NCBI RefSeq assembly: GCF_033153115.1
Contig: NW_026889764.1
Span: 11,904,001 to 11,968,000, forward strand
DNA from: Saccostrea echinata
Taxonomy: Eukaryota
Direction: 5' to 3'
Length of the DNA: 64,000 nt
In this document: in pieces, positions 53,477 through 64,000 of the stretch
Numbering within the stretch: position 1 is the stretch's first letter
Layout of the letters: each line of letters starts with the position of its first letter
Made by a program: the position numbers and the translations under genes
The notes under the pieces: generated by a model
What the model saw: only the letters and a program-made list of their open reading frames with translations
The model's database searches: none
What the model was told of the DNA's origin: nothing

Positions 53477-54748
53477 AATACTGACATAGAAATAACAAAT
53501 GTACAACAAGTATTGCCCATTGGACTAGTTATGGCAAAAAAGATGGGACTAATCCTTATAAAAAACGCAAACAAACATTATAAAAACACATAACATGCTT
53601 GTACAAATGAATGGGACTAGAGTAAATGTATAAAACTTGATCAATTGTATTTCAAAAATATATTTAGCCTAAGACACCAAGTACAAATGCAAAAACAGGT
53701 GGAAGATAAGGTGATGGAGGTGGGTAAAAGTTTCTACACATTCAAACAATGGCTACAGCTTCAATAAACAAATATCACGTGATCAATATGGCGGTAAAGT
53801 ACAGAACCGTAATGGAAAGATTTTTGTTATTCCGGAAAAAATTGACAATGTAATCGAGATGCTATAAATTACTTTATGTTTTCACATAAATACAATTATA
53901 CCATCCTCTTCTAATATAATAGAGGTACCTTTTTAGCCATGAGTCTACTCTGCTCTGTTTTTTGCCCAGCAGATAACATAACACCGAGTTTGTCGAAAAA
54001 GAGCATTTATTATTGAAAATGCCAAAAATGTTTCCCAATCTTAGAAGTACATATGATACTCGTAAAAATTCTAAGGCACAAAATAGGACAGTAAATCTCA
54101 TGTAAAATATATCTCATTACATGTACACAAAGATAAATGTGCCTAAGATATACACCGTACAAATACTGACATAGAAATAACAAATGTACAATAAGTATTG
54201 CCCATTGGACTAGTTATGGCAAAAAAGATGGGACTAATCCTTATAAAAAACGCCATGAACTTGTTGTCAAATTGGCAACAAGTGGCCCATCCAGAGGAGA
54301 CGAATGGGAAGAAAGGTAATCAAGTCCCACAGAGTAACATATGTACTTTCCAAACAGGAAATATGCTATCATTGAATAAGAACTACTTATTCATGTTTGT
54401 TTACATCTATTCTATAACAAATGTGCACAATTAACATGATTAAACCCACAACTCTGTTTGAATTTGATCACAAGTTTCGAAAAACAAATCAACATGTATT
54501 TTTGGAAGTATATATACCACAGTTATGTAAAATTAGGAAGCACCAAGTCAGCTATATATACATATCACACTCATATCTAAAATGAAAACCCAAACATTAA
54601 AAAATAAGAGTTTTCTATTATAGCTTCTTTAACCATGACCTACAATAATCTACAAGAAATATCTTGTGCATATAATTACATGTCATTAAACAAACATGAC
54701 TAGGGTTTAATACTTAAAATCAAAAACAATAAAAAACTTGTTATATTC

Positions 54749-54999
54749 ACAAATGCCGCCTCAGACAGTCATTTGCAAACATGTAATGTTACCTAGAAGT
54801 CATAGTTAAATTTAAAAAACTATCAAACTTGACGTAATCACAAATGCCGCCTCAGACAGTCATTTGTAAACATGTAATGTTAAAAAACTATGAGTACTGG
54901 GTAATGGCCACCTTGAAAAATTGCTCACCTAGCAGCTGCCTCAGACAGTCTGACTAGAGAATACAACATTATTTCATAATCAGCTGCCTCAGACAGTCC
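54749..54999 (-). repeat. Four copies of a GACTGTCTGAGGC(G/A)GC hairpin motif downstream of YR
   Basis: GCCTCAGACAGTC on the + strand at ~54759, 54849, 54938, 54986. Confidence 0.8.
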
Positions 55000-55057
55000 A
55001 ATTATAAAGCAATAGCCAATTATGCAAAGTCTGAATGTAAACTGTCTAAAATGTAAA

Positions 55058-57957: not shown

Positions 57958-58687
57958 ACGTCAGCCATGATAAACCTGCATGTCTATTAGCCAACTCTCT
58001 GACAATTTCTCCATGTTTAATAACTGATGCAACTTGCTTTGGAAATTTTTCTGAATAAATTGCCAAAAATTTTAGAAAAGCTGATGTCCATTGATCTATG
58101 GATTTGATGAGAGTTTTTGACTTGGTTGAAAGTAATTTTAATTCAGAATTGCCTGTACTTTTAAGTTGAACAGACCTGTCTGAGGCAATATCTTCCCTTG
58201 GCAAAAGTTTACTAAAGTCAATATATTTATTTTGCCAGATTTTGTTTTTGATTTTTGTTTCAACCTGTGCTGATATTGGCGTTGACAGCAAATAGTTGTC
58301 ATCATTATCAGACTCAGCTGATGAGGAGTCATCAGTACTCGTATTTTCATCTGAGGAATTTTCATCACCTGAAGAGTCAATCAAATCTGAGTTAGTACCT
58401 GCAATGGAAGGTGATCTAGGAGGTGAAGATATTCTTTTTCTCTTTTTCTTTGGCTCTCTGTGCTTTTTCCTTCCCCTATCCTCAGTTTCTACCATCTGTT
58501 GGGACTCCTGATTGGATTCATTTCTGATCGCTTCTAGGACCTTGTCCGTTACTGCTGCCACCAGCTGGTCCTGTGCGGTCTGTTGCACAGTCTGTTGTGC
58601 AGCCTGCTCTGCAGACCCTGCTGCTGCTGGAATGACCTGAGTTCGCCTCCCTCTTTGTTGGCGTTTGGCACTTTTGGGTTCGCTCAT
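57584..58687 (-). CDS. gag: Gag-like ORF1 of the Ngaro element
   Basis: KIWQNKYIDFSKLL, SIDQWTSAF, WLTYDKQVR; C-terminal CYAFH..C....C.YKHTCYQC...H....C zinc fingers. The ATG is directly preceded by TTTTACAG. Confidence 0.9.
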   Translation of the reverse strand: MSEPKSAKRQQRGRRTQVIPAAAGSAEQAAQQTVQQTAQDQLVAAVTDKVLEAIRNESNQESQQMVETEDRGRKKHREPKKKRKRISSPPRSPSIAGTNSDLIDSSGDENSSDENTSTDDSSSAESDNDDNYLLSTPISAQVETKIKNKIWQNKYIDFSKLLPREDIASDRSVQLKSTGNSELKLLSTKSKTLIKSIDQWTSAFLKFLAIYSEKFPKQVASVIKHGEIVRELANRHAGLSWLTYDKQVRKDIEARSIPWGQLHYEYWVMATTSRNFHHNFQTNFRTKHNFQRRGGPQKGRKTPPGFCYAFHRNGKCYQNNCQYKHTCYQCKKNHSALQCPRGNQSAPNNSSPSYPSSSFSSATTANK

Positions 58688-59110
58688 CTGTAAAATTGTT
58701 TATCAAAATGATATAAATGAAATATATTTTATTCTTAACCACAGCTCTGGTCAATGAATAAGGCTTCAGTACTAATACTGTAATACTGGTACATGGACTT
58801 AATATCAAACACAATTATTGTACCACAACAAATTCATTGACTATGTAAAAACATAGCTTTTTTGTGGAAATTATCATACATATTTGGTTAATTAACAGCT
58901 TTCAACTGATAATATAAGCATGTATGTAAATTCATTTAGAAATACCATTATACCAGTGTGGACTTGAGCATAATAAGTCAAATCTGAATTTTTAATACAT
59001 GTCAATCAACATGGTAAAATTATTGACTCTCACAATGGACTTGAGTAAAAGATACTTATAACAAACATTTATGAACAGGAATGCCATATTTATAAGAACT
59101 TAAACATGCC

Positions 59111-60311
59111 CACCAACCATATAGGTGCATAGAACTTCTGTCACCTTTATCAATGGCCATGTGTTCCCCAACCATATAGGGGTATATAATTTTCATCACA
59201 AATTACACCTGATAAGGATTAAGGCCCCAACCATATAGGAGCCCAACAATATATATATAAACATATTGCCACTTAAACATCAGCATTCCTTGTGATTACA
59301 CAATCTTAGTCACCTATGGTCTAATTACACGTCCAATTAGATGTAACAAGCCCACTTGAACCACCAATTTATGATAAACATATGTAATTACATCAAAGAA
59401 ACCCCAACCATATAGGGGCATGAATATACACAGAAAGCCCCAACCATATAGGGGCATATTAATAAACCTGTAACCATAACTAGGAAACACAGCATATCCT
59501 TTATTGCATAACGCACATATTCATTAACTTTATCCAAAGCTAAAAGACATGTGTTTGTCTATAGAGCACATTTTAATAAATCCCCAACCATATAGGGGCA
59601 CAATCATAAACCTGTAATCAAAATTAGGAAACAAAGCATAACCCCCAAAATGAATATTACTGCACTTCTATAGAGAACCGAAAGATGGTGCCCCAACCAT
59701 ATAGGGGAATACCCCAACCATATAGGGGCAAATTTAACTAAACCCACACCATACGTATATAGGCATAATAATAATCTATGATCATAATAAGAAAGACAGC
59801 ATGATCATAAATGCAATGTGTAATATCTTCTATTCAGTGCTAAAAAACACGTCCCAACCGTATAGGGACAAGTTTCAATAAGGCAGGTGTAAAAAGCACA
59901 AAAACATGAAAACTGGTGAGGGAGGGGGATAAAAAATACAAACTCCAACCAAGTAGGGTACCCTTGAAAAACCCCAACCATATAGGGGTCAAATAATAAA
60001 GTGTTCATATCCAAAAAGCAAACAACAGGCAGATAGTGTAATTAATAAATCTTATATATCTTTATATATAACTAATTATCCCCAACCATATAGGGGAATA
60101 ATCACAGAACTCATATCCCAGCAGAGAAAATACACCTAATATAGGGATATGATAATATAAAAGCACTGAATAATATATAAATTAAGCAAACATATTCTAA
60201 TCAATAAATTGTTGATTAGAAAACAAAAACCCCAACCATATAGGGGTAAATTCCTTTTTTAAATAGCCATGAATAATAAAAACTGTTGTTTACCCCAACC
60301 ATATATAGGGG
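59111..60311 (-). repeat. Dispersed array of 14 17-nt hairpins (CCCCAACCATATAGGGG on +) with variable spacers
   Basis: Exact copies at 59166, 59402, 59438, 59582, 59691, 59712, 59972, 60080, 60230; variants at 59111, 59225, 59852, 59943, 60293. Confidence 0.92.
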
Positions 60312-60519: not shown

Positions 60520-61161
60520 CTATATTTTCAAACAAAATTCATACCCACCATTTGTTATGGTTTTAAGTGTAGAAACTACTACTGCTCGCAAATTATTATA
60601 ATACTTCTTCATTCCTTGCAAATTCAGGTGTACACCATCTTGAGAAAACACCATGTCCTGACTTGCAGAGGACCAGAAACCTGATAAGCGGAAAAATTTT
60701 GATCCTTCCACATTACATAAATAGGATGATATTCTCATATTAAGTTCATCCACTCTTTCATTGAACCACTGAGTATCCACTTCATAACGTATGCGGTAAC
60801 TGGGGGGTCTTCTGTGTAAAGTTTGTAGAATTACAACATGTTTCACTGATTCTGCATAACGAAGGGATATAACAAAGTCAATCAATTGTTTGAAGACATC
60901 TGATACTGATTTAGTAGGATCACAGAGGTCATTTGATACGGCTTGCAATACCACCACATCTGGATGAAACAGCCTTACGTAACGCAGACCTTGCGCCCTA
61001 ACCTTTGACAATGTCGCTCCCCGAAATCCTGCATATGAAACATGAATTTCCTCCAAACTTAAGTTCAAATTTTTTGTCACACGGTTATCAGGAGAACTAT
61101 TCACAAAGTCTTCCAATCTACTGACAAATGAATGTCCTAAAACTACAAGTTTCATAACCAT
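60520..61161 (-). CDS. SGNH/GDSL hydrolase-family protein carried by the Ngaro element, 213 aa
   Basis: Block I VVLGHSF, block II RGAT, block III VVVLQAVSNDL, block V DGVHLN. Confidence 0.9.
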   Translation of the reverse strand: MVMKLVVLGHSFVSRLEDFVNSSPDNRVTKNLNLSLEEIHVSYAGFRGATLSKVRAQGLRYVRLFHPDVVVLQAVSNDLCDPTKSVSDVFKQLIDFVISLRYAESVKHVVILQTLHRRPPSYRIRYEVDTQWFNERVDELNMRISSYLCNVEGSKFFRLSGFWSSASQDMVFSQDGVHLNLQGMKKYYNNLRAVVVSTLKTITNGGYEFCLKI

Positions 61162-61514
61162 GATGGCGAGTTACGTAATCGGATGTAAACCGCCACAAAC
61201 TCTTTTACATTATATAAAATTAAGGAGAATGTACTTACGATGCACCGTCAAACACTAGCAATGAAACATGTGTCTTGCATGAGAATATATGGACACAAAC
61301 GCAAGGAAAATATCAAACAAATGTAAAAGTTTCTACACATTCAAACAATGGCTACAGCTTCAATAAACAAATATCACGTGATCAATATGGCGGTAAAGTA
61401 CAGAACCGTAATGGAAAGATTTTTGTTATTCCGGAAAAAATTGACAATGTAATCGAGATGCTATAAATTACTTTATGTTTTCACATAAATACAAATATTT
61501 TCAAAGGTTTTAAG

Positions 61515-64000
61515 ATGAAAATAAAGGGTACAAGGAAGCTTACATTGCCTTTGGTGGTAATAAGTTTTGGGTTTTGGATTTCTGCCATACTCACACCGAG
61601 CTGGGTTTCCTGGTCCGTTTACTATCCATTACCAAACAAACCTGAAAAGGTACAAGTACAAATGTAATTCTGTTTGTCGTCTTCGTTAAATATTAGATGA
61701 AATAAATGGTGTTAATTAATGGAATTGATTTCTTGTCGTACATTTTGATTTCAACAGCATCACATGTGCATCCCTATGCCAATAGAAACAATATCTATAA
61801 TTACAACGGTATTATAACATTTTGGTATAAAGGTTACAATGAATAACTATGAATAACATGAGGTCTATTGGTCACATCGCTCAGTTGAGCACTTAGAGAT
61901 CACAGAAATCAGTTCAGAATTGAAGAGTTAAAAAATTATTATAAATGACTCCACCTACTCCCAAGGTCGAAGGTGGAAACAAACTTGCTTCCATATTGAT
62001 AAGACTAACCATGGCTTTGTTCTTCCTGAGAGGAAGATTTTTATGATCTTTTTCCTACATCTTCCCATGTAAAACTTTCATCGCCTAATATGGCCCCACC
62101 CTACCCCAGAAGGTCAACATTTGAACAAACTTTAATCTACACTACAATACCAGAGAATGCTTCTGAATCATTATGAATAAAAATGGTTCTGTTGTTTTAA
62201 AAGAAGATTTAAAGATATTTCCTACATCTTCCTTTGTATAATTTTGATCCCCACTCGTGAACAAATTTGAATCTACACTACCTGAGGATGCCTATGTATT
62301 ATTTTGACGATTCGTGGCTTTGCAATTCTTTTTTCCAACCTCTTTCTATAAAAAACTTATATTCCCTGTCGTGGCCACCCTACACCTTGGGGTCATGATT
62401 TGAACAAACTTGAATCTACACCACCTGAAGTTTTTTCTATATCAATAGGACTATACATGGCTTTGTTGGTCATGAGAATTTTCCTATGCATAAGTTGGAT
62501 TCCCTATTGTGCCCCCCCCCCCCCACCGGCCGGGTCATTATTTGAAAAAAAATGAATCTACACTTCCTGCGAATGCCTCTTAATTATTTAGACTAGTCTT
62601 GACTTTGCTGGTCATGAGAAAATGAGCTTTGCTATTCCTGAGAAGATTTGTAAAAATTTCCCATATATTCCTGTGTTTAACTTTATTCCTCCATATCCTC
62701 TGTTGTGGCCCACTCTACCTCGGGGTTCATGATTTGAACAAAGTTGAATCTACACTTTGTAATGACGCTTTCAAGTATGTTTCATCTTTTCTGGTTCAGT
62801 AGTTTTTGAGAAGATTTTTAAAATATGCCAATAAATTTACACTACGCAGGTAGGTTAAGGCTTCCCGTAGAATATGACAGTGCACTCTGTGCCTTCACAT
62901 CTCTGAACTACCAAAATATGACGTCATAATGGAAAATGACGTCAGGTCACTGCAAACTTGAGGTGTTATGACGGGGAGAGTGTCATGAACTTCACACTTT
63001 ATTTCAAACTGCATGTAAAATGCTAGATAGCCATTGCAAAATTCACGGGTCGTTAAAGGTTTTTTAAGTCTTATATGTCCGAATATTTTAAAAATACACC
63101 ACTTACCTACCCTTGATTGAAATTCATCATGTTCAAAATGATTATGAAAAATATACTTTTGAAATGTACTCTGTTTTATACCCGTGGTTGGAGGTAGAAT
63201 TTATTTTGTGTGTATAAAATTGTCTGGCGCAGGTGATTAATGAGGATTAATCTGATAATTTTTGTGGAAATCTGTAAGAAGAGGTTGCGCTCTAACTGAA
63301 TCTTGCTTGGGAAAATGTGTGTTGGCTTTGTTTTAATACAGATTACGATATTGTATGGAAAATACCCTAAAATTTGTAGGTAAGTTGAATTTCTCAGGAT
63401 ATATTTTGTACCCAAGTAATACTATGACTTTTCCCAAGCACATTTCGGATACACAAGGATACGATGAGCTTATTTATATAACAAAATGTTAATAATTATT
63501 GTGTTAATCAGCTGCGCCGAAGCGATTTATATGAAACACTTCCAAAAATTATAAATGACCGTCACGTGATCAACAAAGTCATGTGATATCATAACAAATA
63601 TGCTAATATATAACCGGGGAAACCCTTTATATAAATTGGAAGTACTAAAGTTCAATACTTGTAAATTAAAACCAAAACCGACCTCGCAATGACATATTAT
63701 GTTTTGAGCGCATTTTAAAGCTTCGGGAAGCCTTAACATAGCTGCGTAATTCTTAATTAACCCCCTTTGAAAGAGGGCGCGGCCATTCCTGTGAACAAAC
63801 TTGAACCACCTCACTTGAGCCAATTGCTCAGGTGTGCTAAAATTTAAAGGCTGAGGGTAAAAATCCCACTCCAATTCAGTGCATTTCAAGGAATATTTCC
63901 TACGTTTACATTAAACATTTTCCCTTCACCTTTCAGGAGATGATGATATGGGAATCAACACTGAATCACACATTGCTACACTATTATAATATATTCTTCA
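61515..64000 (+). CDS. Claudin-like four-TM paralog of the 6797-8333 gene (5' part; continues beyond the window)
   Basis: Exon 61515-61649 MKIKGTRKLTLPLVVISFGFWISAILTPSW..PNKPEK|GT (135 nt, same length as in the paralog). Exon from 63937 EMMIWESTLNHTLLHYYNIFF matches EQMMWNNTILHYYKYF. Confidence 0.8.
61855..62840 (+). mobile_element. Helentron-type element with ~5-6 Cg170-like satellite monomers (intronic)
   Basis: End motif ACATGAGGTCTATTGGTCACATCGCTCAGTTGAG; repeated TGAACAAACTTGAATCTACACTACCTGAGGATGC. Confidence 0.8.

Follow-up and report, generated by a model that had tools for sequence, protein, structure and literature searches.

An apparently undescribed array of intronic hairpins in an Ngaro retrotransposon of Saccostrea echinata

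The host element and its two hairpin arrays

The window, by which we mean the whole 64-kb stretch of Saccostrea echinata DNA analyzed here, holds an intact, recently copied Ngaro retrotransposon on its minus strand. Its parts follow the order A1-SGNH-array-gag-RT/RH-YR-B1-A2-B2 (Table 1). Two features mark it as an Ngaro element: split direct repeats in A1..B1 A2 B2 order and overlapping gag, RT/RH, and YR ORFs. The gag ORF, which had no Pfam match, was recognized by its position and zinc motif. YR was recognized by a sub-threshold Pfam match together with a visible HSFRIG..RW....Y pattern, which we take to be the catalytic pattern of the recombinase, and the RNase H label was taken from Ngaro architecture rather than from a domain match. 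Pfam returned no methyltransferase domain in the element ORFs, no terminal inverted repeat was present among the 25 longest repeats listed, and neither capsid, protease, nor envelope was detected in the window element.

Table 1. Features of the Ngaro element, in 5' to 3' order of its sense strand (window coordinates)
Feature	Position	Strand	Basis or remark
A1 split direct repeat (5' end)	61323..61498	-	176 nt, 99% identical to A2
Splice donor 1, GTAAGT	61233..61238	-	GT..AG joint in contigs of X1, X2, X3
SGNH/GDSL hydrolase ORF, 213 aa	60520..61161	-	Pfam PF13472, E 1.7e-8; S11, G48, N77, D175, H178 kept
Splice donor 2, AATG/GTGGGT (slash, joint)	60543..60548	-	joint in 4/4 runs
Array 1, 14 hairpins CCCC-UAUAUGGUU-GGGG on element sense strand	59111..60311	-	within both introns
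Common 3' splice acceptor TTTTACAG	58688..58715	-	end point of both joints; immediately before gag ATG
gag-like ORF, 367 aa	57584..58687	-	position; basic N-terminus; CCCH+CCHC-type zinc motif
RT/RNase H ORF, 650 aa	56008..57960	-	PF00078, E 4.9e-11
Tyrosine recombinase (YR) ORF, 365 aa	55058..56155	-	integrase SAM-like domain, E 7e-4, under Pfam cut-off
Array 2, four bulged hairpins, core GACUGUCUGAGGC(A/G)GC	54740..55010 (hairpins 54753-54998)	-	3' UTR after YR
B1 repeat	54162..54253	-	92 nt, 99% identical to B2
A2 repeat	53724..53899	-	pairs with A1
B2 repeat (3' end)	53477..53568	-	pairs with B1

The same split repeats, gag, RT/RH, YR, and SGNH ORF are described for Ngaro elements of the DIRS order, including DIRS-53_XT and DIRS-54_XT of Xenopus, in the portions of the sources consulted (PMC9210276, PMC8547959, PMC7192593). 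According to those portions, the SGNH ORF of the hydrolase-bearing Xenopus type follows YR, whereas in the window element it comes first and is intronic. The window element further differs in that its gag needs splicing and in its two hairpin arrays. Both SGNH layouts, 5' and after YR, coexist in this genome. Intact SGNH hydrolases also occur in other retroelements, namely, ORF1p of the LINE ZfL2-1 and rotifer LTR and Penelope elements, and the consulted parts of these papers mention no array or intron (PMC3905857, PMC5408684).

The catalytic S, N, D, and H were invariant in an alignment of 23 SGNH proteins, and the oxyanion G was nearly so. Three non-catalytic residues, R15, R117, and N141, were likewise invariant, and all 23 proteins were basic (pI 8.5-10.1). 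The structural model had a pLDDT of 92, and its Foldseek matches were GDSL esterases. An SGNH profile search gave 473 protein clusters with an E-value of 1e-30 or lower. Names were attached to 3 of the 10 clusters looked up, and the named homologues came from Saccostrea, Magallana, and Mytilus. The top profile match, P0012 (2341 aa), contains six SGNH-like stretches and is possibly a gene model spanning several elements. None of the 191 matches of a metagenome pattern scan was confirmed. In Gag, 4-9 of the first 25 residues were K or R in 13/13 ORFs, and the zinc pattern was present in 7 of the 13. Neighbors of Gag in the Atlas include a C3H1-type mollusc cluster, which we treat as a lead only.

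Some repeats lie at or beyond the element ends. A 51-nt stretch, 92% alike, flanks both outer sides of the element (53437-53487 and 61495-61545) and could be a long target duplication or recombination-site homology. Outside the element, a tandem repeat with a 42-nt period occupies 52400-52684. Repeats with a period of ~142 nt at 61982-62837, followed by a 28-nt inverted pair 850 nt apart (62843-62870/63721-63748), are likely other small transposons.

An earlier note on this DNA had described a 17-nt motif repeated 14 times between the SGNH ORF and gag, nine times exactly, at irregular spacing of 21-177 nt. Searching the window with CCCCAACCATATAGGGG, we recovered 13 matches at ≤3 mismatches, all within 59111-60309, 9 of them exact (shuffled sequence: mean 0.04, maximum 1). 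The 14th copy, at 59943, has 4 mismatches. We measured the same range of spacing, and the location agrees with our ORF map (SGNH at 60520-61161, gag ATG at 58687, minus strand). The paired stem-arm variants CACC..GGTG (59111) and TCCC..GGGA (59852) are present as described, as is the extension of the stem into the flanks at 60293, a copy with a 2-nt insertion in its loop. Among the 13 in-register copies, conservation was 0.85-1.00 in the 17-nt core versus 0.31-0.77 in the 20-nt flanks, a comparison that is partly circular since copies were chosen by their core. Against known RNA families (ribozyme, snoRNA, SECIS, and others), Rfam gave 3 matches at E 0.3-0.6, all far under the gathering score.

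Nine spacers are at least 25 nt long, and 2 of their 36 pairs aligned above shuffles. One is the pair after 59438 and after 59582, already named in the earlier note; the second, weaker pair shares the after-59438 spacer. TRF found no tandem array in the array 1 region. A head-to-tail unit conserved over its full length is absent from the window and present in sister families, where units of 40 nt or ~78 nt stand in tandem. The tandem units there imply that the array likely grew by tandem duplication, with its spacers drifting later. That the spacers are decayed minisatellite copies, which the earlier note had set against its own reading, is thus half borne out through the sister families, and selection on the hairpin is not refuted by it. 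Whether other intact family members keep the array had been proposed as a check: it is present in both of the other genomic copies of the element, which are 98-99% identical.

Array 2 combines a fixed apex with lower stems that vary and stay paired. Pooled over five loci, its lower stems covaried (91/156 versus 61.8 ± 5.6, p = 1e-4), and its wobble bias is on the sense-strand side. Counterparts occur in most families with a 5' SGNH. A repeated motif (≥4 copies) followed YR in 20/24 loci examined; this count was made without a shuffle control, so the argument depends on the folds. In a canonical Ngaro, which does not have the intron layout, four covarying bulged hairpins follow the 3' SGNH as a small tail array (L099:9539-9830, oriented L099+L127 stretch).

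Splicing of the array-bearing interval

Splice joints were read from contigs of four public runs (X1-X4), which we guess to be RNA and which come from at most three samples and two studies. The long intron (61238-58688, 2551 nt; joint in 3/4 runs) takes out SGNH and the array, and the short intron (60548-58688, 1861 nt) takes out the array interval only. Both joints have GT..AG ends. Donor 1 lies 80 nt upstream of the SGNH ATG, while donor 2 lies 613 nt after it in three families (window, L021, and L029). Both the SGNH form and the Gag form of spliced RNA are thus without the array. We infer that removal of the long intron yields a gag/RT/YR mRNA and removal of the short one an SGNH mRNA, and that the genomic RNA keeps the array. 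An X1 contig covers 58794-60254 unspliced, and X1 depth over the array interval was about 11; as these runs are assembled contigs, strand and level are not readable from them. The earlier suggestion that the hairpins act in RNA is strengthened by these joints, to the extent that the runs are RNA.

Across the short joint, the SGNH frame does not continue into gag and gains a non-conserved tail. We rejected an SGNH-Gag fusion, since this joint falls in phase 1 and the frame beyond it reaches a stop after 55, 1, and 10 codons in the three families compared. Two X4 joints, 59185-60074 and 60101-60227, lack GT..AG and connect motif copies; they were set aside as likely assembly collapse.

Splice signals were also found at other loci. 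A YAG lies ≤20 nt upstream of the gag ATG in 16/16 loci listed, with a strict pyrimidine tract at the acceptor in 11 of these 16 (background, 0.185). GTRAGT occurs ≤150 nt upstream of the SGNH ATG in 7/19 loci, versus 0.086 in shuffles. The intron interval is kept in 3/3 near-identical genomic copies (a fourth match, at 71%, was left out of the count), and the absence of intronless copies rests on these three.

Hairpins across families of the genome

The exact motif matched 71 times genome-wide, in clusters, while a control pattern matched 0 times; a degenerate form gave 226 matches. At least 6 copies of a repeated 10-mer family were present in 36/49 loci with a 5' SGNH (shuffle maxima 2-5) and in 3/21 comparison loci without one, picked by RT, with the qualification that the loci are mutually non-independent and that the 2 kb used as a control at the 21 loci takes in some host flank. 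Not every 5'-SGNH locus has a large array, as the other 13 of the 49 fell below 6 copies. This DNA-level survey covers one genome, and its 49/21 count leaves out L016, L059, L068, L072, and L085 (interval out of range) as well as L012, whose motif copies lie upstream of SGNH (L012:2900-3115). Several 5'-SGNH families have short intervals with just 2-4 repeated motifs (L071, L073, L075, L089, L054, L090, and L037/L039/L043/L086); these are either natural minimal versions or exceptions.

We extended 17 of the 21 loci without a 5' SGNH. In 12 of them SGNH followed YR (E-value of 3e-8 or lower), and another 2 had weak fragments at that place. No large hairpin array was present near gag in any of these 14 loci, and A1 was close to gag in all five 3'-SGNH loci where it could be placed. 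Since 3'-SGNH elements are without large arrays, the arrays track the intron-bearing layout and not SGNH as such. Locus L076 has a decayed 5' SGNH plus arrays, and L101 has a long 5' region bearing an array.

The same 9-nt loop recurs in families whose SGNH proteins are only 43-64% identical and whose intervals are non-alignable, with motif spacing that is irregular, 40 nt, or ~78 nt. In one locus (L034), the stems around it read GCCC/GGGC. More distant families carry other loops at the same position (CATTT, CAGTAT, GGACCATA, GYTA, and TTTGTG), on stems that often change and remain paired; in L041, L061, L065, L084, and others, the loop is constant and the paired stems vary. Loops are thus many and unrelated among families and uniform inside each. 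The SGNH and RT trees, built from loci of this genome only, are broadly congruent. The gag tree is unreliable, being spoiled by mixed segments, and a search for recombinants found none separating Gag from SGNH.

Covariation was assessed by permuting 3' arms among distinct stems. For the window, 60/84 cells were Watson-Crick versus 52.6 ± 2.2 permuted (p = 0.0028). Together with the retention of the loop between divergent families, this agrees with the claim of the earlier note that selection acts on hairpin and loop. In all, 9/25 families reached p<0.05 and 16/25 showed no significant covariation, many of them with few distinct stems; array units share ancestry, so these p-values overstate independence. 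The strand bias of the hairpins is mixed. On the sense strand, G-U exceeded A-C by 54:20 over 25 arrays (p = 1e-4 versus even, p = 0.024 versus composition), and the two were equal (28:28) when the 4-bp cores were counted over the whole TATATGGTT clade with its dead copies.

Two non-autonomous families carry the array. The first, of about 7.5 kb and represented by eight loci (L015, L018, L019, L024, L026, L027, L028, and L030), retains only short ORF remnants, and its termini are 77-80% like those of the window clade. It holds the loop of that clade in 20-41 array 1 copies per locus, and each of three loci checked had 12 array 2 motifs. A1 and A2 are 99-100% identical at loci with both ends, indicating that the family is young there. 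That it retains its termini and both arrays is what one would expect of cis signals recognized by helper proteins. A scattered 26-copy element (L011) is related to this family.

The second family is chimeric and present in many copies (L017, L022, L023, L050, L051, L052, and L069). It joins the termini and remnants of an L095-like canonical family with a 3' SGNH, an origin tested on L023 and L069, to the SGNH and array 1 of the window clade, without array 2. The captured fragment corresponds approximately to the long intron of the donor family, and in many copies SGNH is frameshifted near codon 161. Fixed differences numbered 1/167 in cores versus 2/236 in spacers; the cores are not better kept, and the test is uninformative on selection. 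An array on non-cognate termini from an array-less family is a poor fit with strict cognate recognition.

The hairpin array is real and general within this genome and apparently so far undescribed. In a literature search by titles and abstract beginnings (with Repbase entries, the Goodwin/Poulter papers, and the 2015 review by Poulter and Butler being outside its scope), we found no description of introns or hairpin arrays in Ngaro elements. A word search of the text of PMC9210276 and PMC3783388 did not find "intron", and one of PMC3783388 did not find "hairpin", "packaging", or "splic".

Candidate readers of the array

If splicing is required for Gag, RT, and YR, spliced and unspliced RNAs would all retain the terminal repeats. 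With terminal repeats on every RNA form, the element would need a mark unique to the unspliced RNA, and array 1 is placed so that unspliced full-length RNA alone would bear it. Our preferred reading, on which we find the case evenly balanced, is that the array is a set of family-specific intronic stem-loops forming a multivalent candidate site by which an element protein, most likely Gag, selects unspliced RNA for export and reverse transcription. Gag would be the putative reader through its basic N-terminus and CCCH/CCHC zinc motif. We favor it over SGNH on two grounds: SGNH appears to be a functional enzyme, and canonical elements have it but no array. Loops that differ from family to family, set against congruent SGNH and RT trees, are easier to reconcile with a reader encoded by the element than with a single host factor. 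Units would multiply by tandem duplication while the spacers drift, and loop and protein are predicted to change together in each family. Counting against selection by Gag are the chimeric-family mismatch, the even wobble count in the clade cores, the 16/25 families with nonsignificant covariation, and the 13/49 loci with fewer than 6 copies.

Retroviruses offer a parallel. The psi signal is a structured signal between splice donor and gag, missing from spliced RNA, and its one compact structure is read by a zinc-finger Gag. By analogy, array 1 lies between donor and gag and is lost on splicing, with a zinc-finger Gag as candidate reader; both joints excise it, so confinement to unspliced RNA would hold here too if our guess about the runs is right. 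Whereas psi is one compact structure, the arrays here repeat a small hairpin 6-40 times, with a loop particular to each family and with putative binding. In the Rev/RRE, Rex/RxRE, and Rec/RcRE systems, an intronic multivalent RNA element is paired with a small accessory ORF, expressed from spliced RNA without that element, whose product is an arginine-rich peptide with an export signal. The window element may be compared with these in having an intronic multivalent element and an accessory ORF on spliced RNA, although its accessory protein is an SGNH hydrolase fold with all catalytic residues rather than an arginine-rich peptide with an export signal. If the preferred reading is true, psi/RRE logic would have arisen independently outside retroviruses, and the families would be a source of orthogonal RNA-hairpin/protein pairs. 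The element supplies a 17-nt candidate signal, splice forms that set this signal apart from the mRNAs, and many loop families, making cognate versus non-cognate binding directly testable. More tentatively, and with rather less confidence than we place in the preferred reading, a whole lineage of animal YR retrotransposons may run a complex-retrovirus-style program, with three RNAs made by alternative splicing, a hairpin/protein code for each family, an intronic array read by the SGNH fold or Gag, and a further role for the second array in the 3' UTR. One genome would in that case contain about 18 natural, mutually orthogonal hairpin-protein pairs similar to that of MS2. In the consulted parts of the sources, Gag reads the psi packaging signal on unspliced retroviral RNA (PMC7157774), the start of DIRS-order cDNA synthesis is unknown (PMC7192593), and the Ngaro hydrolase is without proven function (PMC9210276).

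SGNH itself could be the reader in a loop resembling Rev/RRE, although we consider this unlikely. Made from array-free mRNA, it would bind the hairpins of the pre-mRNA and restrain splicing or export unspliced RNA. A dedicated, position-conserved donor yields the array-free SGNH mRNA, arrays stand directly behind 5' SGNH genes, and SGNH and array moved jointly into the chimeric family. The basic charge of 23/23 proteins and the invariant non-catalytic R15, R117, and N141 would suit such a role, and RNA binding is described for an SGNH-like domain, OSK of Oskar, in the part of the source consulted (PMC5785220). That domain, however, is without the catalytic residues retained here, and the ZfL2-1 esterase bound phospholipids and not oligo-A RNA in the consulted part of its source (PMC3905857). 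The 3'-SGNH elements without large arrays and the frameshift in many chimeric-family copies also speak against SGNH as reader.

We regard it as improbable that host proteins or structure alone explain the array, which would then be a set of intronic splicing silencers that determine how much RNA stays unspliced, or a decoy carried by the intron after excision. The array does lie entirely within both introns, X1 covers the interval at a depth of about 11, and the module sits on foreign termini in the chimeric family. Many unrelated, family-uniform loops are nevertheless hard to fit to one host factor, and the ORF-less family amplifies its clade's own loop. The missing gag/RT cover in X1 proves nothing and was set aside.

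Somewhat more improbable again is that the sites act as DNA, either as cDNA hairpins bound by YR or RT or as an enhancer or insulator cluster of the kind that su(Hw) sites form in gypsy. The gypsy su(Hw) cluster, the 3' UTR repeats of Ogre/Tat, and the 76-bp train of TOC1 are all non-coding repeated motifs with AT-rich spacers, and the su(Hw) sites are bound as double-stranded DNA by a single host protein. We know of no description of the Ogre/Tat and TOC1 repeats as covarying intronic stem-loops. Array 1 shares repeated motifs and AT-rich spacers with these elements and differs from them in being made of covarying intronic stem-loops. In favor of action as DNA, Watson-Crick stems can form on both strands, G-U and A-C are equally frequent in the cores, and DIRS-1 replicates via a single-stranded cDNA that is the antisense strand, according to the part of the source consulted (PMC7192593). 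Against action as DNA, variable stems around fixed loops oppose a double-stranded site, the pooled wobble bias is on the sense strand in array 1 families and array 2, and canonical elements with the same RT/YR machinery are without the array.

Least probable of all is that these are neutral minisatellites in a tolerant AT-rich intron, their covariation mimicked by template switching at small palindromes: the plain 40-nt or ~78-nt tandem units of sister families, the 16/25 families without significant covariation, and the chimeric-family cores that are not extra conserved agree with it, but the 9-nt loop persists across families at 43-64% SGNH identity with non-alignable intervals, the core boundary is sharp, and arrays occupy one position in 36/49 loci.

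Two further candidates were rejected. Repeat-spacer arrays of the CRISPR or integron kind would have spacers of uniform length taken up from elsewhere, whereas the spacing here is 21-177 nt and the sister-family spacers are tandem duplicates of one another. The motif also bears a likeness to what we take to be SRF/CArG, RUNX, and CRESS nonanucleotide sites; in every comparison a key base is mismatched, and the loops of other families are unrelated.
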